Shown here: in pieces, positions 8,705-63,999 of the stretch
Numbering within the stretch: the stretch's first letter is position 1
How the letters are laid out: every line of letters begins with the position of its first letter
Origin: a virus
Direction: 5' to 3' (one strand)
IMG/VR virus record: IMGVR_UViG_3300025570_000007
Length of the DNA stretch: 64,000 nt
Notes under the pieces: generated by a model
What the model was told of the DNA's origin: nothing
Seen by the model: the letters and a program-made list of their open reading frames with translations, nothing else
The model's database searches: none
Program-made: the position numbers and the translations under genes

Positions 8705-8757
8705 TATTGTTTAGTTTTTCGTGTATAAGTATACCGCTCTACTTATATAAATAGTAT

Positions 8758-12299: not shown

Positions 12300-12358
12300 T
12301 TATTATCTATAATGTATTATATAAATAGCTACGGTGTATGGAAAGATATTTCTATTTT

Positions 12359-14972: not shown

Positions 14973-15002
14973 ATTAATGTATTTTTATATAAATAGCGGT
15001 GA

Positions 15003-48037: not shown

Positions 48038-48469
48038 CTAATTTAATACTAACAACTTTTCTCCGTAAAGAAGTTTAGTAAACTTTAAGACTAGTCCACA
48101 TTTTTCATACTCTTCTATATTCTCATAATACAAGCGAAGAATGTCTAAAGCATCGTGACATTCCGAGATATCGTATGTCTCTCCTACTTTATACTTAACT
48201 TCGATAGAATCTATATCTATCCTACTTAAGTAGCTATAGAGACGGTTAAAGTATGTATACATTATTTTATGTCTAACCTCTTTGTACTTCTCCGGATATC
48301 GCTGCTTGTACATAGCATCCAGTATAGTGAAGTTATTTACTCCTGTAGTCACCATCCCCATTAGTACGAATGGATTTGAAAGAACCTCTGATACTCCGTG
48401 CTCTTGGTAGACTTCTTCATCCCCTTTCTCGAAGATAGAGAATAAGTCGTTAGGGTTTATTTTTTCCAT
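48038..48469 (-). CDS. Hypothetical protein with C-terminal UVR-like EEYEKC motif
   Basis: YYE.IEEYEKC. Confidence 0.6.
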   Translation of the reverse strand: MEKINPNDLFSIFEKGDEEVYQEHGVSEVLSNPFVLMGMVTTGVNNFTILDAMYKQRYPEKYKEVRHKIMYTYFNRLYSYLSRIDIDSIEVKYKVGETYDISECHDALDILRLYYENIEEYEKCGLVLKFTKLLYGEKLLVLN

Positions 48470-50944: not shown

Positions 50945-51177
50945 AATTTCTCTATTTCCTGTTTAACGTCTTCCCATTCTTTAATCCAAAGATTCATATT
51001 AAACTTATGTTCTATTTCTTTTTTTACTTGATAGTTTCTCTATTTTTTTTTTGAAAGTCTCGTATTTCAATCCACATTTCGTGAGCATCGGTTTCGTTAA
51101 ATTGAAACCCTAAATTTATAGCTGTTTGCCATATTAATTTTATTTCTGCTTTCGTTTCGTTTTTGATACTCATTTTT

Positions 51178-51750: not shown

Positions 51751-51940
51751 TACCTCAGTAAATAAAAAGGTATATATGTATATACCACCTATATGGTGAA
51801 AAATCGACAGCATTATGACCACTAGTATGGGCTCTCCCGCCTGTGCTCTCACCCCGTTAGGGAACAATACCGGCAGTGTTATATCAGTATGATCTAACCT
51901 TGATAGCAACCTGATCTATCTCCTTCCGGAACAAGGAAGG

Positions 51941-52252
51941 CTATTCGCCCTCCACTAGTTCCATGTCTGTGTATCTCATCTTGTAGCTTGTCTGTTGGCT
52001 CATCATATCATATGAGTACATATGCAAGTACGTCTTCTTACTACTACTCAGTCTAACATTCATACCATCGTAGATTAATTCATCAGCCTTCTCTATTGAT
52101 AGACTAGCTCCATAGTCTTCATCATAACTATAACATCTGATAATATAGTCTAGATCTTTGTACTTAATTCTTAACTCAGTATCCTCCTCGATTAGATTTG
52201 CTATTGCCTCTCTAATGTTTAATGTTGCTTTTAATTGTGCTGTGTAAGTCAT
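51941..52252 (-). CDS. Cassette hypothetical protein
   Basis: ATG embedded in the repeat leader. Confidence 0.75.
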   Translation of the reverse strand: MTYTAQLKATLNIREAIANLIEEDTELRIKYKDLDYIIRCYSYDEDYGASLSIEKADELIYDGMNVRLSSSKKTYLHMYSYDMMSQQTSYKMRYTDMELVEGE

Positions 52253-52325
52253 AACTCTTATTGTTTTAATTATACCTAAATATAAGAAATATATAACAGT
52301 GAGGCAACTTTAATTGCCGTGAAGT

Positions 52326-52535
52326 TTAGTCAGTTGTTAGAGAGAATACTCTGTAGTTATCTAATGTTTCCTGAATACTATCTCTTCTTAGTTGACTCTT
52401 TGAGAACTCTAACCCATCCTCTTTCAACACCTCCCTGGTAGCATCATATAGTAATTTACTTTGTACTAACATCTCTACAGTCATTGACTTATATTGCTCA
52501 TGCGTTAACTTCTCTATAAATGATTCTAATGTCAT
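52326..52535 (-). CDS. Hypothetical protein
   Basis: Second ORF of a cassette. Confidence 0.6.
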   Translation of the reverse strand: MTLESFIEKLTHEQYKSMTVEMLVQSKLLYDATREVLKEDGLEFSKSQLRRDSIQETLDNYRVFSLTTD

Positions 52536-52548
52536 AATGTTTGGTATT

Positions 52549-52575
52549 AAAAGAAGGAGGGTTTTTACACCCTCC
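52549..52575 (-). terminator. Probable terminator/attenuator
   Basis: GGAGGGT-GTAAAA-ACCCTCC followed by TTCTTTT. Confidence 0.6.
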
Positions 52576-52583
52576 GTTCCTAG

Positions 52584-53099
52584 TTAAAATTCTAATGCTA
52601 ACTGTATTCCTAATCCTGTTCTTATCAACTCATATGCTGATTGTACCTTTCTTGTTGGTAAGAATGTCATACCTTTCCAATCGATTAACTCTCCATCTTG
52701 AATTGTTAAAGCATGTTTAGCTACTAACACTATAAATGTCCCTTCTGGATTAGCTTGAACGAATGACTTAAGAGTCTTTTGTCTCCATACTTCCTCTCCA
52801 TGAAGTTTGTATAGATTTCTAGTCTGCTTTCTAGTACAGATCTTTACGTCAAATGTTCTCCCATCTAACTCTATTCCGTCCTTAGAAGCTTTCTCCATTC
52901 TACCTACAATCTGTTCGTTCTTTGTTCCTCTTCTGTCAACTCTCTTAAACTCTTCTTTACAGAATTTATGAGCTGAATTGTAAGCAATACCACTAGCAGC
53001 AGCTAAGCTTCTTACTACACAATCATTCTTTTCACCTCTCGCTAAAGCTGATCCTGATTCGATTAACTCGTTGTAACTGTTTTCAATTTGTAAATACAT
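52584..53099 (-). CDS. Papain-fold (C39-like) peptidase-like protein
   Basis: NDCVVRSLA (Cys) ... GTFIV.V.KHA..I.DG..ID (His/Asp). Confidence 0.6.
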   Translation of the reverse strand: MYLQIENSYNELIESGSALARGEKNDCVVRSLAAASGIAYNSAHKFCKEEFKRVDRRGTKNEQIVGRMEKASKDGIELDGRTFDVKICTRKQTRNLYKLHGEEVWRQKTLKSFVQANPEGTFIVLVAKHALTIQDGELIDWKGMTFLPTRKVQSAYELIRTGLGIQLALEF

Positions 53100-53166
53100 A
53101 ACCTCTGTTTTAATTATTATACCTAAATATAAGAAATATCTACGTTACTAGCAACTAATTCCGGAA

Positions 53167-53289
53167 TCATTTTGCATGACCTATTTGACTTTCTCTTAAT
53201 ATGTTACCTAAGTTTACATTGAAGATATATTCTGCTAATACCTTTGATCTTATCTCATTCATTCGCTCGTTGTATCCTTCTGGTGGCAT
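53167..53289 (-). CDS. Small hypothetical protein, 40 aa (not in track)
   Basis: MPPEGYNERMNEIRSKV...GHAK*. Confidence 0.4.
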   Translation of the reverse strand: MPPEGYNERMNEIRSKVLAEYIFNVNLGNILRESQIGHAK

Positions 53290-53307
53290 AGTATTGTTTT
53301 TTAATTG

Positions 53308-53514
53308 TTATTTAGTTAATTTAATTGTTTTTCTATCAACTGACCATAATGGAGTTCTACCTAAAGTTACTTGAAACTCTCCATGGATAGGATTCACTCC
53401 TGCGAAGGTTAAAATACCTACGTACCTCTCTCCTTTAACCTTAACCTCTACCTTCTTTCCAATCCAGCGTTTGAATTGTGGTACTGTCTGCTTTAATAGT
53501 AAATCTTTAAACAT
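53308..53514 (-). CDS. Cassette protein, Sm/SH3-like small barrel
   Basis: WIGKKVEV...G..Y.G.L pattern. Confidence 0.65.
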   Translation of the reverse strand: MFKDLLLKQTVPQFKRWIGKKVEVKVKGERYVGILTFAGVNPIHGEFQVTLGRTPLWSVDRKTIKLTK

Positions 53515-53555
53515 AACCTCTGTTTTAAATATACCTAAATATATGAATAATCTAG

Positions 53556-53813
53556 TTAGGATCCAACTTTTAAATGAGTATATAATGATCCGTAGTACCC
53601 TCCTCCTCCTTTATTAGAGCTCCAGGTATCTGCATGAACTCCTGTAGCACCGGTAATAATTTCATCTCCTTTTTGGTACCTGTACTGTCTTACAAACCCT
53701 ACTCCTTCCTTATCGATAGGAACAAACCCTGCTCGAGTTAAGGCATTGTAATGCCACTGATCTTCTACCTTGTGTACTTTCTTATCTGCTTTGTTAAAAT
53801 CTACTGTGTTCAT
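53556..53813 (-). CDS. Cassette hypothetical protein
   Basis: ATG in the repeat leader. Confidence 0.75.
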   Translation of the reverse strand: MNTVDFNKADKKVHKVEDQWHYNALTRAGFVPIDKEGVGFVRQYRYQKGDEIITGATGVHADTWSSNKGGGGYYGSLYTHLKVGS

Positions 53814-53860
53814 AACTCTTATTGTTTTAATTATAACTAAATATATGAATAATAACTCTG

Positions 53861-54217
53861 TTAGGCAACTCTACCTAACAGTTTTTCTAGTTCCGGAAAC
53901 TGCCCTCCTATAGTCTTCATTTGAGCTATCTTCTTACTCTCCTCTCTCTTCTTAGCAATCGCTTGCTTCTTTTCCTCTCTATAAGCTTCAACCCAATATG
54001 CCATTTGATCTTCATGCTGATCTAAAGCCTCTCCTCTATCAGCTTCTGACTCATATCTCTGCCAATGACTTCCGTAAGCACTTTCCCACTCTACAGCTGG
54101 TACTGTAAACTTACCTTCTGCATCCATTCCATAATCTATATCACTTACATAACTTCCTCCTGTATTGCAATATGCTTCGAACTCCTTATTTGTAATTTTA
54201 ATCTCTGTAGTACCCAT
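53861..54217 (-). CDS. Cassette hypothetical protein
   Basis: ATG in the repeat leader; C-terminal T.GGQFPEL..L. Confidence 0.75.
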   Translation of the reverse strand: MGTTEIKITNKEFEAYCNTGGSYVSDIDYGMDAEGKFTVPAVEWESAYGSHWQRYESEADRGEALDQHEDQMAYWVEAYREEKKQAIAKKREESKKIAQMKTIGGQFPELEKLLGRVA

Positions 54218-54282
54218 AACTCTTATCGTTTTAATTATACCTAAATATACGATTAATTAAGGTAGTAGGCAACTAATTTAAT

Positions 54283-54311
54283 AAGAAAAGGCTCCTTAAA
54301 AAAAGAGCCTT
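54283..54311 (-). terminator. Rho-independent terminator
   Basis: AAGGCTC...GAGCCTT followed by TTCTT. Confidence 0.65.
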
Positions 54312-54341
54312 ATTCCTAATAATAATTAAAACTACAGTGGG

Positions 54342-55172
54342 TTATGAAGCAACTGTATTTGGTTGAACAACTTGCTTTGAATGATATCTTATCAAGTTCT
54401 CTATATTTTTATATCTTACATTTTCAAATGTATGTGTGTAAGTATTCTCTGTTTCTATTCTCTTATCATCTACATATTCATATTCATACTGGACTAAATT
54501 TAATTCAATATTACATGACTTTCCCGATTTGGTTTTAGAAACGATTCTAGCTTTTTTAATCTGTCTTACTTCATGATTGAAAGCAATATCCATCATTGGA
54601 TAGTTACATTTCTTTCCTGTCTCAAAATTTATCTTTCCAAACTCTACTCCTTCTTTTTCAAGACGATCTAAAAGTATTTGTTTTGCTTCTTGCTTCTGCC
54701 TATCTTCCACTCCTGTAATCTCTTTCTCTAAATCCCAAATCTCTTTGTACTTTTTATTAATCCCCTCCTTACATTCAGAATGTATAGCATTTATATTATT
54801 GATAATAGTCTGCTTATCTAATAAGATAACCTTAGCACAATTTCCCATTACGATTAATCTCTCTAATTCAAAAGTAGATTCTTCTGATGTCGAGTAAGCT
54901 GACATCCTAAGTCCTCTTACTGCTTTAGTATCATCACCATAAAAAGTATCAAATTGTAATGAAAACATCTCTCTAGCAAAAGTCTCATCATCTCTTTTTC
55001 TTTCAACTTGGAATGATGAACTTCCTTGTTTAATATCAAACCCTTCTATGAGCTGATCGCCAAAACGATGATTAACGTACTCTGTACATCTTGCGTTTCT
55101 AATGTCTTCTAAGTCCCATCTCTCTTTCTTAAGTTCGATAAGCTTCTCTTGTAAAATTTGTAATGCTGTCAT
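54342..55172 (-). CDS. Cassette hypothetical protein (coiled coil)
   Basis: 276-aa ORF, ATG in the repeat leader. Confidence 0.8.
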   Translation of the reverse strand: MTALQILQEKLIELKKERWDLEDIRNARCTEYVNHRFGDQLIEGFDIKQGSSSFQVERKRDDETFAREMFSLQFDTFYGDDTKAVRGLRMSAYSTSEESTFELERLIVMGNCAKVILLDKQTIINNINAIHSECKEGINKKYKEIWDLEKEITGVEDRQKQEAKQILLDRLEKEGVEFGKINFETGKKCNYPMMDIAFNHEVRQIKKARIVSKTKSGKSCNIELNLVQYEYEYVDDKRIETENTYTHTFENVRYKNIENLIRYHSKQVVQPNTVAS

Positions 55173-55221
55173 AACCTTTATATGTTTTTAATTATACCTA
55201 AATATAAGAAATATATATACG

Positions 55222-55632
55222 TTAGCCAACTATTTCTTTAAGTTCTTTTAAAGTATTTTGACAGGTTATTAGTTGCTTTTCTAATAAATTAATCTTATCT
55301 TTAGCAGCTTTTCTAATATCTAATTGATCAGAATACATCGCTTTATAAAACTCACCCTCTGTAATAGTAGTTTTCTCCGGAACTTCCTCTATATTAATAT
55401 CTCTTAAATCTCTATCAGTAAAAATAGTAGCTCCCCAATGACATCCATATCCTCCCCTACCTGGTGCAAATCCCACTTTTACAACTCCGGCAACTTTTAA
55501 TAATTCTCTCTCTAAATCCTTATCAAATTTATTAACAAATAAGAACTTTAATCTTCTTCCCTCTACTCTCTTATCATTAAAAATGGTAACAGACTTTCCT
55601 AATTCCTTTTCAATAAAATGCTTTAGTTTCAT
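55222..55632 (-). CDS. Cassette hypothetical protein
   Basis: FNDKR..GRRLK; ATG in the repeat leader. Confidence 0.75.
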   Translation of the reverse strand: MKLKHFIEKELGKSVTIFNDKRVEGRRLKFLFVNKFDKDLERELLKVAGVVKVGFAPGRGGYGCHWGATIFTDRDLRDINIEEVPEKTTITEGEFYKAMYSDQLDIRKAAKDKINLLEKQLITCQNTLKELKEIVG

Positions 55633-55709
55633 AACCTATTGTTTTAATTATACCTAAATATATGAAATAAAAAGGGAAGGAGCAACTCTTCCCCTTATTT
55701 CTTTTTCAA

Positions 55710-55865
55710 CTATTCTACTATAAAATCTACAGCTTCCTCTCCTATTCCTTTACCATTTCTAGTAATCTCATAACTAGGATCCATTCCGGACACCATTATA
55801 TCATTAACTAATTCATTAATACTGTTAAACTCCTTTTTGTAATACTCACATTTTAAACTATACAT
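55710..55865 (-). CDS. Cassette hypothetical protein (true start MYSLKC at 55865)
   Basis: The track extension crosses a promoter repeat. Confidence 0.7.
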   Translation of the reverse strand: MYSLKCEYYKKEFNSINELVNDIMVSGMDPSYEITRNGKGIGEEAVDFIVE

Positions 55866-55923
55866 ATCCTTTGTTTTAATTATTATACCTAAATATATGA
55901 AATATCTTTGAGAGGAGCAACTT

Positions 55924-56091
55924 CTACATCCACTCATTTTCTACATAAATACTTATCTTATCACACATGTAATCTAGATCATCAACATCTTCTTGACTGA
56001 ATCCTTCTGCTATTGCTAGCTTTATAAATGTGTCAACTCGAATACCTGCAAATACGAGCAGTTTAAGTAGTCCTACTGAAATTAATATCAT
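55924..56091 (-). CDS. Small hypothetical protein, 55 aa (not in track)
   Basis: MILISVGLLKLLVFAG...ENEWM*, AAGGTTATG leader. Confidence 0.5.
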   Translation of the reverse strand: MILISVGLLKLLVFAGIRVDTFIKLAIAEGFSQEDVDDLDYMCDKISIYVENEWM

Positions 56092-56104
56092 AACCTTTTA
56101 TTTT

Positions 56105-56269
56105 TTAATCTACATAATAATCAATTGTATCCCAACCATCTTTTCCTCTCACTTTTGTAAAATACTTAGGACCTGCCCTAAAAGCTTTTGAAGTTTGAGA
56201 ATGAGATTTGAAATTATACTCAATCTTAGTCTTAGCTACTTCAGCTGTAATTTCTATTAAGTCTGCCAT
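56105..56269 (-). CDS. Small hypothetical protein, 54 aa (not in track)
   Basis: MADLIEITAEVAK...DGWDTIDYYVD*. Confidence 0.55.
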   Translation of the reverse strand: MADLIEITAEVAKTKIEYNFKSHSQTSKAFRAGPKYFTKVRGKDGWDTIDYYVD

Positions 56270-56287
56270 AATCTAAATTTACGAAAT

Positions 56288-56593
56288 TTACTTCATACTT
56301 CCAATTTTATTTTGAATGAATACTTTAAACTTATAAGATAATACATGCGAACCTATAGACCAGGATATCTTCTCTGTTGCAGATTCAGTAATGGAGTAAT
56401 TATAATGATCATATAAGCAAAATATACTTCCTTCTTGATCTAAATAAATCCATTCCGGAGCAAAGCTATCTGTTGCCTTACCTGTAGGAACTCCTAATGC
56501 AGTTTCTAAATCTAATAACGAAGCTATAATGCTTTCGCTCTTACTTGTTCCTGTAATATCTACACTTAACCTATCTCTTACTTTATCGAACAT
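56288..56593 (-). CDS. Cassette hypothetical protein
   Basis: GTS...L...LG.P...EW...F.LYD...WSIG pattern. Confidence 0.75.
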   Translation of the reverse strand: MFDKVRDRLSVDITGTSKSESIIASLLDLETALGVPTGKATDSFAPEWIYLDQEGSIFCLYDHYNYSITESATEKISWSIGSHVLSYKFKVFIQNKIGSMK

Positions 56594-56681
56594 AACCTTT
56601 GTTTTTAATTATACCTAAATATAAGAAATAAAAAGGGAAATAACAAATACCTCCCTTAGTTTCTCCATAGATATTATCTAT

Positions 56682-56972
56682 CTATTTAGCATTTCTTATG
56701 ACTGTGTAGATGTAGCCCATTCTAATTTTTCCACACTTTAAACCTTTAGCCCAATCCTCAGATTCTAGCTTTGTAAAGATTTCTTTTTTCTCTAACCCTT
56801 CTCCATGAAGTTCTAGAATTCTGTGCTTCAAAGTTCCACCTACACCAATCTTGGTATTTTGAGCTTCTTTGATCAGTAATTCTAAGTTAGCATTCTTCAT
56901 TCTTGCAAGACCTTTAGCTTTAATTCCTAAATCCTTTGCTTCTTGTACTAGTGCTGCTTTTGACATAATCAT
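56682..56972 (-). CDS. Cassette protein with Rho-N/HeH-like N-terminus and HTH-like C-terminus
   Basis: KA.L...AKDLGIK....MK...L..LI; I.EL..EGL....I...L. Confidence 0.55.
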   Translation of the reverse strand: MIMSKAALVQEAKDLGIKAKGLARMKNANLELLIKEAQNTKIGVGGTLKHRILELHGEGLEKKEIFTKLESEDWAKGLKCGKIRMGYIYTVIRNAK

Positions 56973-57057
56973 TAATTTTTAACTGTTAATACTTTCTTTT
57001 TATTATACCTAAATATAAGAATTAAAAAGGGAAGGAGCAACCCTTCCCTGGTTTATT

Positions 57058-57393
57058 TTAAGCCTCATTAATGTACTTTTTAATAATCTTGGTAGGGTAG
57101 ACTGTATGACTATTATTTCCTACAACATCTTCCCACCATTTAATTCCCATTGTTAATCTTGGAATTGCAAATCTCATAATATCTTCATCATGTACTCTGA
57201 AAAATACATCATGTCTTCCTCCTGTTTCAGGAACAATGTTTCCATCTGAATCTATATCAGGGTCTGTCACTACTGTTTCGATTAGTTCTACCCTTGTATT
57301 CATATCATCTTTAAAGAAATTAATGAAATCTTCTTTCATACTATCTTCTAATATGGTACCTGGCCAAACGCATAATTGATTAAATTTACTCAT
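57058..57393 (-). CDS. Cassette hypothetical protein
   Basis: TGGR.D.FF..H.EDI..FA.PRL..GI.WWED. Confidence 0.8.
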   Translation of the reverse strand: MSKFNQLCVWPGTILEDSMKEDFINFFKDDMNTRVELIETVVTDPDIDSDGNIVPETGGRHDVFFRVHDEDIMRFAIPRLTMGIKWWEDVVGNNSHTVYPTKIIKKYINEA

Positions 57394-57454
57394 AACTTAT
57401 ATTGTTTTTATTATTACACCTAAATATACGAAATATCTACGTAAGGAGCAACTT

Positions 57455-57823
57455 TTATCCGTTTAAAATCTTCACTATGTTTCTAGATCCTTGAGACATT
57501 TCTCTTTCCCTCCTTGACTTTCTATTAGCTTCAAGTTGCTTGCAAGCATCAGAAATCATTTCTTCTAATATTCCTTTATCAAAAGGTACATAATGTAAAT
57601 TATCATCTGTTTCTAAAGCTACAATTAAAGCTCCGACAGATTTATCTCTGTATGATTCGAAACCTACTAATATTTCCCCAAATGATTTGTAATGATCTAA
57701 TAATTCTTCTTTATATGAAGTAGAATGCTCTAATCCCATCTCTAACCCCATTTCAAAGAAAAATGAATTAGCATCCTGTTTTAATGAATAGATTAAGCAA
57801 TCTAATAATGTGTAATTTTTCAT
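57455..57823 (-). CDS. Cassette hypothetical protein
   Basis: ATG in the repeat leader. Confidence 0.75.
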   Translation of the reverse strand: MKNYTLLDCLIYSLKQDANSFFFEMGLEMGLEHSTSYKEELLDHYKSFGEILVGFESYRDKSVGALIVALETDDNLHYVPFDKGILEEMISDACKQLEANRKSRREREMSQGSRNIVKILNG

Positions 57824-57894
57824 AACCTTTATTGTTTTTATTATACCTAAATATAAGAATTAAAAAGGGAAGGAGCAACCCTTCCCCTGTTTTT

Positions 57895-58200
57895 TTAAGA
57901 ATGTTTAAAGTAAATGTAAAGGGCTCTCCCACCTTCTTTAGGTTTACATAAACATCTACTAATTTTTCTGGATCTTAAAGCTCTCCTAAGGCATTCAGCG
58001 TATTTCTTATTACCTCCCCAAGAAGTACCTCTATAAAAATCATACAGGTTTTCCATAATTTGGCTTTCTGTTTTACCGGGATATTTTGTAACATAAGCTA
58101 CAATTTCGTCTTGGTTTACTATTCTTTTAAGTCCTCCCCCACCCCAAAAGTTTTCCCCAAATGTTCGGTAAATCTTTTTTGATTCTAAATCTGTTGTCAT
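57895..58200 (-). CDS. Cassette protein, winged-HTH-like
   Basis: I..YV..YPG.T..QI...L ... LRRAL....I.R ... Y.Y. Confidence 0.55.
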   Translation of the reverse strand: MTTDLESKKIYRTFGENFWGGGGLKRIVNQDEIVAYVTKYPGKTESQIMENLYDFYRGTSWGGNKKYAECLRRALRSRKISRCLCKPKEGGRALYIYFKHS

Positions 58201-58257
58201 AACTTATATCGTTTTATTATTATACCTAAATATACGAATAATTAAATTAGGCTCCAA

Positions 58258-58455
58258 CTAACAGGGTACATATTTTGTAATTATTATTTCTTCATTCCAT
58301 CCTTCTGTACAGGTTCCATCTGGAAATTTACCTTCATCATTTATTCCTAACATCTCTAGATTTCCTGAACTATTTCTTAAGACTGTTACCTTAGTCTTAA
58401 TTCCTGAAACATCAATGTAAGTCTCTCCTAATACTACTGTTTTAAAATCTGCCAT
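58258..58455 (-). CDS. Cassette hypothetical protein
   Basis: ATG in the repeat leader. Confidence 0.7.
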   Translation of the reverse strand: MADFKTVVLGETYIDVSGIKTKVTVLRNSSGNLEMLGINDEGKFPDGTCTEGWNEEIIITKYVPC

Positions 58456-58603
58456 AACTCTTATCTTTTAATTATACCTAAATATAAGAAATATCTTTGA
58501 GAGGAGCAACTTTTAATTAAAAGGAAGGGTAGTAATAAAATAAATTAACGCCCCCATTAAATCGTTTGTGTGCCATTATTGGCGTTACTCCCTCCCCTTT
58601 TTC

Positions 58604-58852
58604 TTACATTTCTGCTAATGTTATTTCGTAAAGGACGTCTTCCATCTCTCCACTTGATTCGATATCATCTAACCATTGACAAACATGCATATCTATGTCC
58701 TGTCTATTGATAGCTTCATTTATGTATGCTTTCATAAAAGCTAATCGTACCTTAGTTAGAGGTACTCCATTTGCTGGATGATCGTCCGGAAGTCTTAAAT
58801 TATCTTCAATTGCTTCTTCGAACATTTCAGGAAGATCTATTTCTATTTTCAT
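58604..58852 (-). CDS. Hypothetical protein
   Basis: ATGA overlap with an upstream micro-ORF. Confidence 0.7.
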   Translation of the reverse strand: MKIEIDLPEMFEEAIEDNLRLPDDHPANGVPLTKVRLAFMKAYINEAINRQDIDMHVCQWLDDIESSGEMEDVLYEITLAEM

Positions 58853-58932
58853 GATAAGTCTTTTTTACAAATTGAACATTTACCATTTTTGACTTGTACC
58901 ATTGTACAACACTTTTTACAAAATCTGAACAT
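58849..58932 (-). CDS. 27-aa zinc-ribbon-like peptide (not in track)
   Basis: MFRFCKKCCTMVQVKNGKCSICKKDLS*, ATG in the repeat leader. Confidence 0.65.
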   Translation of the reverse strand: MFRFCKKCCTMVQVKNGKCSICKKDLS

Positions 58933-58985
58933 AACCTTTTGTTTTAATTATTATACCTAAATATACGAATAACTACCTTAGTAAC

Positions 58986-59378
58986 CTACCAGTTTCCTAA
59001 ATTAATTGAATGTAAATGAGCTAAAGCTATTTCTTTTGAAATACCAACTCCTATTAAGCTTTCTTCTAATTCAACACCAAACCCCTCTCCATCTAAACTA
59101 TCAATTCTTTTTCTGTAAGTATCTCTATCTTCTTGGCAAAAATAAGTATCCAATAATAATTCAAACTCAAAAACTGTAGAATTATATCCTTGCTCTTTAT
59201 TAAAATCTTCAACCTCCTTTTCCAGCTCCTCACTTATCTCATATTCGTAAGGATCTATTCCTTCCTGTTCCTTAAACATCTTTTCTAAAAGTTGCTTAAA
59301 TGGAATAAAGTCAAATGAAAACTTATTAGTCCATTCATCTCCTCTACAATTTGTGTGTACTATTATATATACTTTCAT
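58986..59378 (-). CDS. Cassette hypothetical acidic protein
   Basis: ATG in the repeat leader. Confidence 0.75.
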   Translation of the reverse strand: MKVYIIVHTNCRGDEWTNKFSFDFIPFKQLLEKMFKEQEGIDPYEYEISEELEKEVEDFNKEQGYNSTVFEFELLLDTYFCQEDRDTYRKRIDSLDGEGFGVELEESLIGVGISKEIALAHLHSINLGNW

Positions 59379-59447
59379 AACCTTTGTTTTAATATACCTA
59401 AATATAAGAAATAAAAAGGGAAGTACAAACTACTTCCCTAATTGCTT

Positions 59448-59627
59448 TTACCATCTTCCTAAGAACTCTCCTTCATCATCATATATCCACGTTTCCGTAA
59501 TATGACAATCTCCATCATACCTCTCCTTAATGCTCTCCCATTCTTTTTTAGCATCCGACTTAGTAGGGTGCTCATTTGAGGAGTATTCATCTCCCTCGTT
59601 GTCCTTGTAATTGAAATCGTAAACCAT
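59448..59627 (-). CDS. Cassette hypothetical acidic protein (true start MVYDF at 59627)
   Basis: The track N-terminus is a translation of the repeat. Confidence 0.7.
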   Translation of the reverse strand: MVYDFNYKDNEGDEYSSNEHPTKSDAKKEWESIKERYDGDCHITETWIYDDEGEFLGRW

Positions 59628-59630
59628 AAT

Positions 59631-60003
59631 CTTTATTGTTTTATTATTATACCTAAATATATGAAATATAATTAAGGTAGGCAACTAAGTACCTACCTTT
59701 TTTAAATTAATCCCATACCTCTATATCCTCAAGGATATTCTCCAAGCAACTATCATAAGGATTTCCCTGCCCTAGCAATTGATTAAACCCATACTTTCCG
59801 TAAGCTTGATAGTTTGAAACTATATTAGTGCCCCTTACTGCATCATCTACTAAATTCATAGCTTCATTTACTAATTCTTGAGCTTGCATAATAGCCTCTT
59901 TTCTTTCTACTAAATCCATAACCTTTATTGTTTTATTATTATACCTAAATATATGAAATATAATTAAGGTAGGCAACTAAGTACCTACCTTTTTTAAATT
60001 AAT
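59631..60003. repeat. Exact 81-bp direct repeat (59631-59711 and 59923-60003)
   Basis: Identical ctttattgttttattattatacctaaatatatgaaatataattaaggtaggcaactaagtacctaccttttttaaattaat. Confidence 0.92.
59707..59919 (-). CDS. Cassette hypothetical protein (true start MDLVERK at 59919)
   Basis: The track N-terminus is a translation of the repeat. Confidence 0.7.
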   Translation of the reverse strand: MDLVERKEAIMQAQELVNEAMNLVDDAVRGTNIVSNYQAYGKYGFNQLLGQGNPYDSCLENILEDIEVWD

Positions 60004-60262
60004 AAGCAAATACTTCTCCACCTACTTTAATTTCCGTAATTGTGTCAAAGTTAATCATTCTATAACCTCCACTTTGCATATCATAACATCCTAGTAGATT
60101 ATACTTAGATGGATCATACTTTAATGTCCCCCCTTTTAAATGCTTCTTAACACCTAATCGAGCATTCATCACTCTTACCTCTCCATTTTTTTTAATGAAC
60201 GTAATTGTGAATGTTTTTCCGGACTTAACCGATTCTAAATTTTTGAATTCTGATAGTAGCAT
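59999..60262 (-). CDS. SH3 beta-barrel / WYL_2 (DUF2693)-like protein
   Basis: F.I.F.KKNGEVR.M.A...YD....GYR.IN...I. Confidence 0.75.
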   Translation of the reverse strand: MLLSEFKNLESVKSGKTFTITFIKKNGEVRVMNARLGVKKHLKGGTLKYDPSKYNLLGCYDMQSGGYRMINFDTITEIKVGGEVFAY

Positions 60263-60319
60263 AACCTTTTGTTTTTATTATTATACCTAAATATATGAAT
60301 AATTAGGGTAGGCTCCAAC

Positions 60320-60514
60320 TTAATAATTAAAGATATCAGCAAAGTTCTGAATAAATAATTCTTTAGTATCTTCACTTAAATCCTCTAACTTCTCTCCAAA
60401 TATTTCCTGAAGTTCAGAATATACATCTTCTTCAGATCTCCCTTCTAGTAAACTGCTCTCCTCCTTTTTTAATATGTCCTTTAGTTCAATTTCAAAACTC
60501 ACCTTAATTAACAT
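60320..60514 (-). CDS. Cassette hypothetical acidic protein
   Basis: ATG in the repeat leader. Confidence 0.7.
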   Translation of the reverse strand: MLIKVSFEIELKDILKKEESSLLEGRSEEDVYSELQEIFGEKLEDLSEDTKELFIQNFADIFNY

Positions 60515-60591
60515 AACCTTTTGTTTTTATTATTATACCTAAATATACGTAATATAAGTAAGGTAGGCAACTAAGTACCTACCTTTTTTAA

Positions 60592-60864
60592 TTAGTTTGA
60601 AATTACTTTTAGACCTGGCTGGAATACTGTCTTATACCCTCCTCCTAGACTATCAATAACTCTATCAATAAAGTCTTGTAATAGGTAGGTACCATCCGAA
60701 GATCCAAATCCATGACCTTCCGGCCAATCATCTGTCCATTCTGTTGCTACTTCAACAGCTATCTCTGTTAAAGATCCAAAATGTATTTGGTGAATGATTT
60801 CATTAAAGCCTTCTATCTTAGATGACTTTGTTACTAAATGTACTGGGTGTACTAAAAAATCCAT
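60592..60864 (-). CDS. Cassette hypothetical protein
   Basis: W.EG.GFGSSD motif; first cassette of the array. Confidence 0.75.
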   Translation of the reverse strand: MDFLVHPVHLVTKSSKIEGFNEIIHQIHFGSLTEIAVEVATEWTDDWPEGHGFGSSDGTYLLQDFIDRVIDSLGGGYKTVFQPGLKVISN

Positions 60865-60961
60865 AACTCTTATCGTTTTAATTATACCTAAATATATGAA
60901 TTATAATTGTAACTACCTACCCTTTCCGGAAATTAATTAAGGAAAATAAAGTTACTTAAAT

Positions 60962-60995
60962 AGTTGCTCCTTACATATATAGTCCGTATCTTTAG
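60962..60995 (+). promoter_or_regulatory. Divergent Bacteroidota-type promoter with no ORF downstream
   Basis: AGTTGCTCC...-N20-TATCTTTAG on the plus strand. Confidence 0.65.
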
Positions 60996-61589: not shown

Positions 61590-61710
61590 GTGAGAAGGAC
61601 GGCGGGAAGACGTAGTGAGGATGGCGGGAATACCCTACCTAGTGAGGACGTAGTGAGGATAGCGTGAAGACGGCGGGAGTCTCCCCTATTTTACCCCTTT
61701 TACCCCTTCT
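61590..61710. repeat. Degenerate short G-rich repeats plus pyrimidine repeats in a non-coding region
   Basis: GGCGGGA x3, TAGTGAGGA x3, TTTTACCCC x2. Confidence 0.75.
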
Positions 61711-62163
61711 TATTCCGGAAAGAGAGGAAGGTACGGGCCTAGACGGGCCTTTTATTCCATTATTCACATTTTTTAAGGAATCTCCTATAGTACCTATTGT
61801 ATTATATGTAAGGAAGGGAAGGTTTTACTGTTAATGTCGTAAAAGTCGAGGTTCATAGAAAAAATCTATAGAAAAAATTTGTTTTTTAGACAGGCACCTG
61901 CCTTACATCTCTATCCTTCTTTCCATACCTACCCTATTCAATTCTTACACATATACATATATACTCATGTACCTCTATACTTATATAACTATATACACAT
62001 ATACTTCTATACTTTTTTATACACTTGACCTACTTAGCCTTCCTTATACATGTTATATAAGGTTTTCCCTATATCTCTCAGTGTCTCTATAGGAATCTAT
62101 TCAATACGATTATAGTATATTGTAATGCTTTGGAAGGTTATTAGATACAGTATTAACTACTCG

Positions 62164-62502
62164 TTATATGACATAACTCTCGAAAGGACTAGTTGTTAGC
62201 TTACCATCTTTCTTCCATTCTTTTTCTAAAAAGTTATGCAAGTCTCTTAACGATACACCTTCTTCTTCTATATGCCCGTTACGTAATATATCTCCTGTCT
62301 CTTGATCATATGACCACATCTCTCCTTTACCTAAGTCTCTTTCATCTAACGTTATAGTAGCTTCAGGTATCTCTTCTACATGATTATGATCATATCCTTT
62401 TATATGATGATCTTTATGTATCTCTTCTTTTACTATATACCCTATTACCGATGTACCTATTAACACCTTACCTAATACACCTAGAAAGTCTCTTCTATTC
62501 AT
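62164..62502 (-). CDS. Hypothetical protein with Tat-like N-terminus
   Basis: MNRRDFL followed by a hydrophobic stretch. Confidence 0.6.
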   Translation of the reverse strand: MNRRDFLGVLGKVLIGTSVIGYIVKEEIHKDHHIKGYDHNHVEEIPEATITLDERDLGKGEMWSYDQETGDILRNGHIEEEGVSLRDLHNFLEKEWKKDGKLTTSPFESYVI

Positions 62503-62827
62503 TCTTATTATTCTTTTGACTCTGAGATTCCCTCTTGGCTAATTTCTTTTTTAATTCTTTGATTTCCTTCTCTATTGTTTCTACTTCATATTCTTTCCAT
62601 AACTCCCTTAAGTAGTCATTCATCCTAGGTACTGCTTTCTCTAGGAAGGTCCATCTTATATGTCCTCCTAGTGGTATGGAAGGAACCATCTTTAATTTAA
62701 TAAAGTCTATACTGTCCATAAATTCTAACTCCCTCTTATAGTATACAATGTTTTCCATTAATTCGGTTTCCGTCTTAGGATCACTCCATAAACTTACTGA
62801 TCTAATTCTTGTTTTCTCTCTTCCCAT
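62495..62827 (-). CDS. Hypothetical protein
   Basis: ORF with C-terminal coiled coil. Confidence 0.6.
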   Translation of the reverse strand: MGREKTRIRSVSLWSDPKTETELMENIVYYKRELEFMDSIDFIKLKMVPSIPLGGHIRWTFLEKAVPRMNDYLRELWKEYEVETIEKEIKELKKKLAKRESQSQKNNKNE

Positions 62828-63480: not shown

Positions 63481-63532
63481 TAATAACAGTTGATATAAGT
63501 CATTAAAAACGCCTCATATCTTTGTGTTAGGC
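63481..63532 (-). mobile_element. attC-like recombination site (short)
   Basis: Coding strand GCCTAAC-ACAAA-GATATGAG...CTTATATC-AACT-GTTATTA; the upstream ORF stop lies inside TAAC. Confidence 0.6.
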
Positions 63533-63751
63533 AACATTTAAAACTAACTTATCGCCTTTTAAATCATAAGCCAAAAAACCATATTTTTTATTCGGTAGGT
63601 ATTCTATGTAATTCTCAATAGTGTCTTTATAATCAGATAAGTTGTCGCCAATATAATCAAGGTCGTGGGTGTCATAATATCCGTTTTCATAAGCATCTAT
63701 TGCGTCCTCTATACTTTTTAATTCTTCTAATATCTCTTCAGTCCATTTCAT
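63527..63751 (-). CDS. Acidic hypothetical protein in an attC-like cassette (true start MKWTEE at 63751)
   Basis: Bounded by complementary 10-mers GTTAGGCAAC and GTTGCCTAAC. Confidence 0.7.
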   Translation of the reverse strand: MKWTEEILEELKSIEDAIDAYENGYYDTHDLDYIGDNLSDYKDTIENYIEYLPNKKYGFLAYDLKGDKLVLNVA

Positions 63752-63885: not shown

Positions 63886-63999
63886 AAAATAATTTACTAC
63901 TATCCACATCCAAATGAAGTGCATTACTTGGTCTACTACAAAATGACCCCAAGGTAAAGTGTTTTGCTTTAATTCAGTTTGAAACGAACCCATCGTTTT
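63880..63999 (-). CDS. C-terminus of a DUF3307-like membrane protein (runs off the window)
   Basis: ...LPWGHFVVDQVMHFIWMWIVVNYFC*, DQxxH motif; stop inside TGCTAAC. Confidence 0.55.
   Translation of the reverse strand, partial: KTMGSFQTELKQNTLPWGHFVVDQVMHFIWMWIVVNYFC

Follow-up and report, generated by a model that had tools for sequence, protein, structure and literature searches.

The question raised by this locus is how a long row of unrelated small genes comes to stand behind copies of one and the same intergenic sequence, and whether these copies serve only to express the genes or are also the places at which the genes are exchanged. The locus lies in IMG/VR virus record IMGVR_UViG_3300025570_000007, of which a stretch of 64,000 nucleotides was analysed (the window; positions are counted from its first letter). 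An earlier note on this DNA had described, at 51941-60921, an array of 21 repeat-headed, mutually unrelated small open reading frames (ORFs). The repeat array is confirmed and its limits are exact, with the stop codon of the final cargo gene on one side and the -33 end of unit 1 on the other, but strand and gene count required correction, since the minus strand carries both units and genes, and behind the 21 units stand 26 ORFs of 27-276 amino acids (aa), four units having 2-3 genes each. No paralogs were found among the cargo proteins within the window at E<1e-5. The best explanation, which we hold to be probable, is that the array is a hyperplastic, probably early region of an Immutovirus-like T4-type myophage, in which cassettes flanked by the unit are shuffled by homologous recombination. 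The earlier interpretation, that of promoter-delimited cassettes recombining within their units, is largely right, and part of it is supported by the comparisons described below.

Judged by its genes, the window is part of an Immutovirus-like T4-type myophage. It encodes a T4-type major head protein (phrog_138), portal (phrog_213), large terminase (phrog_2) and baseplate wedge (phrog_219), and outside the array it consists of T4-type head, portal, terminase, baseplate and fibre proteins, all on the array's strand. The closest isolate is Flavobacterium phage vB_FspM_immuto (Immutovirus, 160 kb, host Flavobacterium sp. LMO8; immuto below), whose large terminase is 76% identical to that of the window, the next matches being gp17 of T4-like cyanophages; on account of this terminase, the host is very probably a member of the Flavobacteriia. 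Proteins of the window were also found on one 170-kb contig and on about 20 further metagenome contigs. When the array was compared with 50,697 phage records by megablast there was no match, and with blastn only immuto was matched, at the units only. No tRNA genes were found in the window.

The core of the unit, TATATTTAGGTATAAT, is found 21 times with 0-1 mismatch, in each case on the minus strand and within 52269-60896; the five remaining matches in the 64 kb each need 3 mismatches. At up to 3 mismatches, chance would give 4.2 +/- 2.0 matches, and 26 were reached in none of 100 shuffles. On the minus strand, which is the coding strand, the unit is laid out as (A/G)GTTG(C/G), 20 nt, TATATTTAGGTAT, an A-rich leader and ATG, and a typical leader reads AAT(AAT)(T)AAAAC(A)ATAARRGTT directly before the ATG. 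The gap from core to ATG is 15-22 nt (32 nt in one unit), and 56-73 nt separate the -33 box from the ATG. The upstream GTTG box stands at a fixed distance in 17 of the 21 units; in two others a shifted TTTG box is found (cores at 59406 and 56623), and in the last two GGTAGG takes its place (60896 and 58965). Information content peaks at AGTTGC, at TTTCnTATATTTAGGTAT and in the start context GGTTATG.

Independent assemblies contain contigs of this same phage at 99.9-100% identity to the window, and these contigs show one informative difference within the array. Five contigs, L015, L019 and L152 among them, have an additional cassette, encoding a 53-aa protein, at the place between window positions 60920 and 60876. 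The window lacks this cassette, as do L274 and seven of the ten same-phage contigs listed; the tenth listed, L024, ends before the site. The 53-aa cassette is flanked by two near-identical 46-bp units, and the window's single unit is a chimera of the two, its left part agreeing with the upstream copy and its right part with the downstream one, with the crossover confined to 21 bp (TATATTTAGGTATAATTAAAA). A corresponding pair was found in another lineage, where immuto gene 135 lies between two units that are identical over about 50 nt, and IMG/VR contig L172 (86-93% identity in aligned array blocks) is without gene 135 and has one chimeric unit. Aligned in this way, both junctions show insertions and deletions (indels) of cassettes arising by recombination inside the unit.

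Reordering was seen when contigs L205 and L252 were compared. These have four blocks in common, at 88-95% identity, arranged A-B-C-D in one contig but D-A-C-B in its counterpart. The ends of these blocks are mostly at -26 to -28 or +36 to +40 of the unit core, and overall between -26 and +40. Block ends were then counted over all non-identical pairs, using the internal ends of blocks of at least 85% identity and an interval of -55 to +45 around each unit core. Units held 102 of the 199 ends against 25.8 expected, about four times as many (binomial p about 1e-38, a value tempered by the fact that the 199 ends are not independent of each other). The gain, loss and reordering of genes through leader recombination that the earlier note had claimed is borne out by the two indels with chimeric units, the shuffled blocks of L205 and L252 and the placing of block ends; the outcomes that it had named as contrary, fixed gene content or breaks outside the repeats, are not what was found, as content varies and breakpoints lie in the repeats.

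Duplication may be a further outcome. In IMG/VR genome G001 (IMGVR_UViG_3300020048_000027, 153.6 kb, 94% complete), at 62200-62776, and also in L014, three units at intervals of 288 bp surround two copies of a 73-aa gene that are 100% identical; this looks like a tandem duplication of a whole cassette but could also be an assembly effect. Within the window, two intergenic units (59621-59711 and 59913-60003) that are 98% identical over 91 nt flank the 70-aa gene at 59707-59919, and the neighbouring genes are unrelated. Both complete relatives, G001 and immuto, possess a RecA/UvsX-like gene, and neither tyrosine (PF00589) nor serine (PF00239) recombinases were found in either of them, so that the 'recombinase-free' platform proposed earlier fits in the sense that no dedicated site-specific enzyme is involved.

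Arrays of the same unit are not confined to the phage of the window. At least 4 units are present in 52 fetched loci, that of immuto included; immuto itself has at least 18 copies at the syntenic place, G001 has about 20, and five further large IMG/VR genomes have 12-19 each. The array is a clade-wide trait, with the consensus AAAAAGTTGC, about 19 nt, TTCn, TAT(A/C)TTTAGGTAT, (C/T)AATAATTAAAAC or AATTAAAAAC, about 8 nt, and TTATG. Leaders from one genome differ by an edit distance of 0.27 and those from different genomes by 0.34, a difference that none of 1000 permutations reached, and each genome has its own flavour of leader. The core genes that flank the array are collinear with those of relatives at 40-65% amino-acid identity. 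Among the cargo genes, five have homologs in G001 and two in immuto, and for 14 of 25 cargo proteins the fetched loci, 1.9 Mb in total, contain no homolog; the cargo consists almost wholly of orphan genes and has a fast turnover. The 51-aa protein is 79-81% identical to its homolog in G001, well above the neighbouring genes, and in L026, L029 and L032 homologs of the 87-aa, 96-aa, 82-aa and 54-aa genes occur in a different relative order.

The promoter content of the unit was read against what is known of the host phylum. In Bacteroidota, promoters of the primary sigma factor have TTTG at -33 and TAnnTTTG at -12 to -5 (the -7 box), about 5 nt from the start site, and translation proceeds without a Shine-Dalgarno sequence, favoured by A at -3, -6, -12 and -13 (PMC6847099); in F. 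psychrophilum the median 5' untranslated region (UTR) is 24 nt (PMC9723704). Compared with this consensus, the -33 TTG, the 20-nt spacing and 7 of the 8 positions of TAnnTTTG are matched in 17-21 units, the elements that fit being TTG, the 20-nt spacer and TATATTT. When the units are aligned on the ATG, A prevails at -6 and at -9 to -14, and a purine-rich Shine-Dalgarno sequence at working distance is absent from the leader. The unit reads as a Bacteroidota -33/-7 promoter followed by a short, A-rich leader of Shine-Dalgarno-free type. Sigma-70-type sites were not enriched in the window (47 against 45.6 in shuffles), and the TATAAT that follows the core was rejected as a sigma-70 -10 box, being TATCAAT or TATTAAT in relatives. 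Canonical TTG-N18-21-TAHHTTTG occurs at 8 sites in the window, and these were set aside as promoters, as 7 of them lie inside genes; the sole non-coding one is at 63913 on the minus strand.

Terminator-like hairpins are enriched as well, with 19 against 3.0 +/- 1.7 in shuffles. In 9 of the 21 units the -33 box lies inside the hairpin that belongs to the upstream gene, as in cassette 10 (GGGAAGG-GTTGCT-CCTTCCC-TTTTT), and 2 further terminators stand alone. The stems vary in sequence from unit to unit with their position kept, and T-runs follow them, as in terminators.

Taken together, these features suggest the following mechanism. The unit would be a compact expression module, made up of an A/T-rich tract with the -33 box (A/G)GTTGC, a 20-nt spacer ending in TTCn, the extended -7 box TATATTTAGGTAT and a predicted A-rich 5' UTR of about 16-23 nt that runs into GTT-ATG. 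With the -33 box enclosed, in 9 of the 21 units, by the upstream gene's terminator hairpin, each cassette would be insulated from its neighbour and separately promoted. Because the same unit of 55-90 bp flanks every cassette, homologous recombination between units would delete, insert, duplicate or reorder cassettes and leave expression undisturbed. The likely enzymes would be a RecA/UvsX-type system of the phage or that of the host. The mechanism would be that of the PeSL (promoter-early stem-loop) elements of phages RB49 and phi1, made from the transcription and translation signals of Bacteroidota. Of this scheme, the sequences show the anatomy of the units, their conservation in the clade, the turnover of cargo and the crossovers within units; we infer promoter and terminator activity, recognition by the host's sigma-A, early timing and a mini-circle intermediate.

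Several points weigh against this explanation. The roughly 23 contigs of the window's own phage yielded a single indel within the array. When close relatives (>85% nucleotide identity) were sought by exact-motif scans, IMG/VR and the metagenomes gave only same-strain contigs, and a protein search with the 276-aa cargo gave only one partial match of 56%; in-array breakpoints for the phage of the window therefore rest on one event, and the others come from other lineages. The sample is 64 kb of a genome of about 170 kb, and the relatives are mostly metagenome assemblies, in which repeats can give misjoins. The enrichment of block ends cannot separate a recombination mechanism from selection against breaks inside genes, because nearly all intergenic space within the arrays consists of units. 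Outside the array, one breakpoint lies at window position 51020, directly after a stop codon and not in a unit, and another, at 63530, shares only 8-9 bp of microhomology, TTGC(C)TAAC, and is not in a unit either. Finally, promoter use, start sites, timing and terminator function are all read from the letters of the DNA.

One alternative is that the units are expression signals only, alike because every small gene requires a strong promoter and translation start of this kind. Recombination at them would be incidental, and turnover would proceed mainly by illegitimate or microhomology-based events, of which selection leaves those at gene boundaries. Of the three strain-level breakpoints in and near the array, the two at 51020 and 63530 do lie outside full units; the core is conserved across very distant phages, which requires selection for function and not gene conversion alone; and as units coincide with intergenic space, the enrichment does not tell mechanism from selection. 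However, both indels left chimeric units, in which the crossover falls within 20-50 bp of identity, and three times the pair of units that encloses a polymorphic or orphan cassette is more alike than any other pair in that genome. The genome-specific leader variants, and the whole cassette that is tandemly duplicated with a period equal to the unit spacing, likewise speak for exchange within units, and we regard a role in expression alone as rather unlikely.

The remaining point against shuffled, host-promoted early cassettes concerns the promoter itself. The last position of the -7 box is A and not the nearly invariant G (-5) of the host consensus, and it is followed by an invariant GGTAT, in every unit and in every relative, so that recognition by unmodified host sigma-A is not certain. 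The promoter reading of the earlier note fits the Bacteroidota primary-sigma grammar in TTG, the 20-nt spacing and TAnnTTT, and agrees with the lack of sigma-70 enrichment, but the final G that it gives is A in every copy. Such uniformity could mean that the units are phage-specific middle or delayed-early promoters, for which the host RNA polymerase needs a MotA/AsiA-like phage factor that recognises TTTAGGTAT or AGTTGC; the shared departure at G-5 and the added GGTAT (relative to the consensus of PMC6847099) would agree with this, as would the presence of only one canonical non-coding site in the window. Against it, the two-box layout and 20-nt spacing match host grammar, a Sigma70_r2 domain was not found in the two complete relatives, and no other promoter class able to drive the first genes was seen in the window. 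By analogy, too, orphan-gene arrays of T4-type phages would use host-type early promoters (PMC2839356), and we consider phage-specific promoters doubtful. We are no less hesitant about a related possibility, that the TATMTTTAGGTAT box (A for G at -5, plus GGTAT) and the extended AAAAAGTTGC form a class poorly read by host sigma-A, for which a phage appropriator is needed. If this were true, the units would be a takeover switch for the Bacteroidota RNA polymerase, and a clade-wide docking sequence for the exchange of early-gene mini-circles among diverse Flavobacteriia myophages.

An integron-like or other site-specific cassette system, with the hairpins as attC-type sites, would account for small, unrelated cassettes that all point one way and are rapidly gained and lost, and for imperfect inverted repeats at the junctions, but it is rejected as hardly credible, as tyrosine and serine recombinases are lacking in the two complete relatives, the hairpin is present in only 9 of 21 units and is followed by T-runs as in terminators, and integron cassettes are promoterless and moved by IntI at attC, whereas every cassette of the array has its own promoter and the homologous crossovers fall in the promoter core, not at the hairpin.

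Returning to cassettes shuffled by homologous recombination between units, the nearest known systems belong to other phages. In T4, early promoters are present in many uniform, extended host-type copies with an A-rich upstream tract, before small non-essential early genes. The array resembles them in its uniform, extended, predicted host-type promoter, its A-rich upstream tract and the small genes behind, but it has a different sigma grammar, and the whole intergenic region, leader included, is repeated. The host-takeover module of SPO1 and the pre-early region of T5 are similar in being clusters of small early genes with several strong host-type promoters; to our knowledge, repeat-mediated exchange of cassettes has not been described for either.

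The likeness to PeSL elements goes further, and the comparison made by the earlier note was apt, given the T4-type genome, the hyperplastic placement, the indel junctions within the motif and the stem-loops in 9 of 21 units. PeSL elements of RB49 and phi1 comprise an A/T-rich tract, a sigma-70 early promoter, a stem-loop terminator of variable register, a Shine-Dalgarno sequence and a start codon; they are found mainly in hyperplastic regions, ahead of orphan genes, and when they recombine with each other cassettes are lost or gained (RB49 ORF192 compared with phi1) and mini-circles arise (Arbiol et al. 2010, PMC2839356). Comeau et al. (2014) extended them to T4/PST and KVP40/nt-1 and proposed them for all T4-like phages (PMC4122927). 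Both systems consist of repeated intergenic units of about 60-100 bp that contain a promoter, of host type in PeSL elements and predicted to be so in the array, with an overlapping or adjacent terminator stem-loop and reach the start codon; both stand before orphan genes in hyperplastic regions of a T4-type myovirus; and in both, cassette indels between close relatives leave a single chimeric unit, as with RB49 ORF192 and phi1. In contrast, there is no sequence homology between PeSL elements and the array units. The array uses the Bacteroidota -33/-7 arrangement (TTG, 20 nt, TATATTTAG) and PeSL elements the -35/-10 of sigma-70; the array leader is A-rich with no Shine-Dalgarno sequence, whereas PeSL elements carry one at their 3' end; the stem-loop occurs in only some of the array units (the nine above); and the density of the array is very high, with 21 units in 9 kb. 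Mini-circles are known for PeSL elements, whereas the array is known from sequence comparison alone. On these grounds the array appears to be the Bacteroidota-phage counterpart of PeSL, working alike and not a member at the sequence level. A full-text literature search for PeSL and Bacteroidetes together found nothing relevant.

Until now, modular shuffling at promoters has been on record only for T4-type phages that infect Proteobacteria and use sigma-70 promoters. Its occurrence in a large clade of Bacteroidota myophages, whose promoter and translation grammar is different, would make the design convergent and general, as Comeau et al. (2014) predicted. The hundreds of natural copies define a promoter, leader and start consensus of about 60 nt, which might be used for gene expression in Flavobacteriia, a group with few genetic tools, and the uniform A at -5 raises the question of how sigma-A recognises it. 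The cassettes also offer a defined set of small orphan genes that could be screened for toxicity and counter-defence, including a papain-fold candidate, a WYL_2 protein and a zinc-ribbon-like peptide of 27 aa. They are listed in the table together with a second intergenic motif of the window.

Positions of the 21 cassettes, their units and cargo ORFs, and of intergenic copies of CTATTTATATAA, in the window (homologs are given as the number of fetched loci that contain them)
Feature	Position	Strand	Unit	Hairpin	Cargo	Homologs	Remarks
Cassette 1	60592-60921	-	60862-60921		90 aa 60592-60864		core 60884-60896; GGTAGG box; chimeric junction where the 53-aa cassette of L015/L019/L152 is absent
Cassette 2	60320-60585	-	60512-60572	60560-60585	64 aa 60320-60514		hairpin holds -33 box
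Cassette 3	59999-60320	-	60260-60320		87 aa 59999-60262	5	WYL_2
Cassette 4	59707-59991	-	59917-59978	59966-59991	70 aa 59707-59919
Cassette 5	59448-59699	-	59625-59686	59674-59699	59 aa 59448-59627
Cassette 6	58986-59439	-	59376-59431	59417-59439	130 aa 58986-59378		shifted TTTG
Cassette 7	58604-58990	-	58930-58990		27 aa 58849-58932; 82 aa 58604-58852		GGTAGG box
Cassette 8	58258-58511	-	58453-58511		65 aa 58258-58455
Cassette 9	57895-58259	-	58198-58259		101 aa 57895-58200	10	among the few conserved cargos
Cassette 10	57455-57888	-	57821-57880	57865-57888	122 aa 57455-57823		terminator-like hairpin
Cassette 11	57058-57453	-	57391-57453		111 aa 57058-57393		core with 1 mismatch
Cassette 12	56682-57049	-	56970-57042	57028-57049	96 aa 56682-56972		32-nt leader
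Cassette 13	55924-56657	-	56591-56648	56633-56657	101 aa 56288-56593; 54 aa 56105-56269; 55 aa 55924-56091	6 (54 aa)	shifted TTTG; three ORFs
Cassette 14	55710-55922	-	55863-55922		51 aa 55710-55865	8
Cassette 15	55222-55696	-	55630-55687	55671-55696	136 aa 55222-55632
Cassette 16	54342-55231	-	55170-55231		276 aa 54342-55172	20	most conserved cargo; separate putative terminator 54288-54311
Cassette 17	53861-54274	-	54215-54274		118 aa 53861-54217
Cassette 18	53556-53881	-	53811-53870	53858-53881	85 aa 53556-53813		core with 1 mismatch
Cassette 19	53167-53568	-	53512-53568		68 aa 53308-53514; 40 aa 53167-53289
Cassette 20	52326-53156	-	53097-53156		171 aa 52584-53099; 69 aa 52326-52535	8 (171 aa)	putative terminator 52556-52575
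Cassette 21	51941-52309	-	52250-52309		103 aa 51941-52252
CTATTTATATAA, exact	8743-8754	-					intergenic
CTATTTATATAA, exact	12317-12328	-					intergenic
CTATTTATATAA, exact	14985-14996	-					intergenic
CTATTTATATAA, 1-2 mismatches	21911	-					intergenic
CTATTTATATAA, 1-2 mismatches	33330	-					intergenic
CTATTTATATAA, 1-2 mismatches	28505	-					intergenic
CTATTTATATAA, 1-2 mismatches	44839	-					intergenic

At E<=0.01, Pfam gave no match for 21 of the 26 cargo proteins, nor for the extra 53-aa protein. The sole match passing the Pfam cut-off was WYL_2 (PF10902) in the 87-aa protein, with 29.9 bits against a cut-off of 26.7, and together with phrog_3754 for the 171-aa protein it makes up the only family matches in Pfam and PHROGs. 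The anti-defence or host-takeover role that the earlier note proposed for the cargo is a candidate function, and titration of the host RNA polymerase by the many promoters is speculation. In the family of the 171-aa protein Cys27 and His129 are invariant. Its structural model is confident (predicted local distance difference test, pLDDT, 82), and nearly all of the 50 best structural neighbours are papain-fold cysteine peptidases or deubiquitinase-like proteins, including the C39 domains of ComA and PCAT1, staphopain and viral tegument deubiquitinases, with a middling best Z of 7.5. We take the papain-like fold suggested by this model as a lead, not an assignment. A profile search against PDB sequences returned only BLIP-II, a spurious short match that was discarded. 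The 276-aa protein was modelled by AlphaFold2 with pLDDT 86 as a long coiled coil with two beta domains; the model had no PDB match at E<=0.001, and its matches in the atlas were virus-only clusters. The 27-aa ORF directly behind unit 7 contains CxxC...CxxC and was missed by gene callers; it overlaps the start of the 82-aa gene (ATGA), and the arrangement suggests that the two are translationally coupled.

The structural genes of the window have no array unit, and seven of their upstream gaps carry CTATTTATATAA or a near match, placed in short gaps 12-35 nt upstream of the genes. The total of CTATTTATATAA matches at up to 2 mismatches in the window is not above chance, and only the intergenic placement is suggestive; CTATTTATATAA is accordingly a candidate late-type promoter motif, and the array unit and CTATTTATATAA would fit two temporal classes of promoter. 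The two boxes of the unit (AGTTG, 20 nt, TATMTTTAG) were also found with non-array leaders, on the minus strand at 48055, 19564, 4096 and 51749, preceding a conserved 143-aa gene, a nucleotidyltransferase operon, a 208-aa gene and an ORF-poor stretch, respectively, and on the plus strand at 60964.

Directly after the last cassette lies an ORF-free, GC-richer stretch at 51790-51940 (minus strand), which is 72-79% identical in nucleotides to that of distant relatives (L032, L139/L206 and L201), although the cargo beside it there is unrelated. Some blocks of the stretch, such as TGATATAACACTG and GATTTTTCAC, are invariant, its middle is variable and GC-rich, and it closes with an AT hairpin and a T-run. 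No Rfam family was found in the window, and none around 51.4-52.0 kb even at E<=1; the stretch is a candidate non-coding RNA, 3' UTR element or DNA site. Further downstream of the array, at 50971-51020, three strain haplotypes were distinguished. The window has a 48-bp remnant, in place of which L276 (1275-1458) has a 67-aa gene, and L015, L016 and L272 (L272:11233-20312) have another module, consisting of 83, 159, 329 and 169-aa helix-turn-helix genes followed by a 1305-aa gene on the opposite strand. The haplotype junctions are at overlaps of stop and start codons such as GAAATAGAGAAATTATGAAT, and not at units.

Upstream of the array, a 359-bp segment with a 74-aa gene (63527-63751) is present in the window and L152 and absent from L015, L016 and L019. 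The direct repeat of 8-9 bp at its junction near 63530, TTGC(C)TAAC, resembles the -33 box and overlaps stop codons. The unit-like promoter at 60964 on the plus strand points away from the array into an ORF-poor gap of 1.1 kb, which contains GAGGACGTAGTGAGGAT-type repeats and a 16-bp tandem repeat, TACACATATACATATA, in three copies (61606-61682, 61946-62009). These repeats are iteron-like, and the gap could be an origin or a regulatory region.

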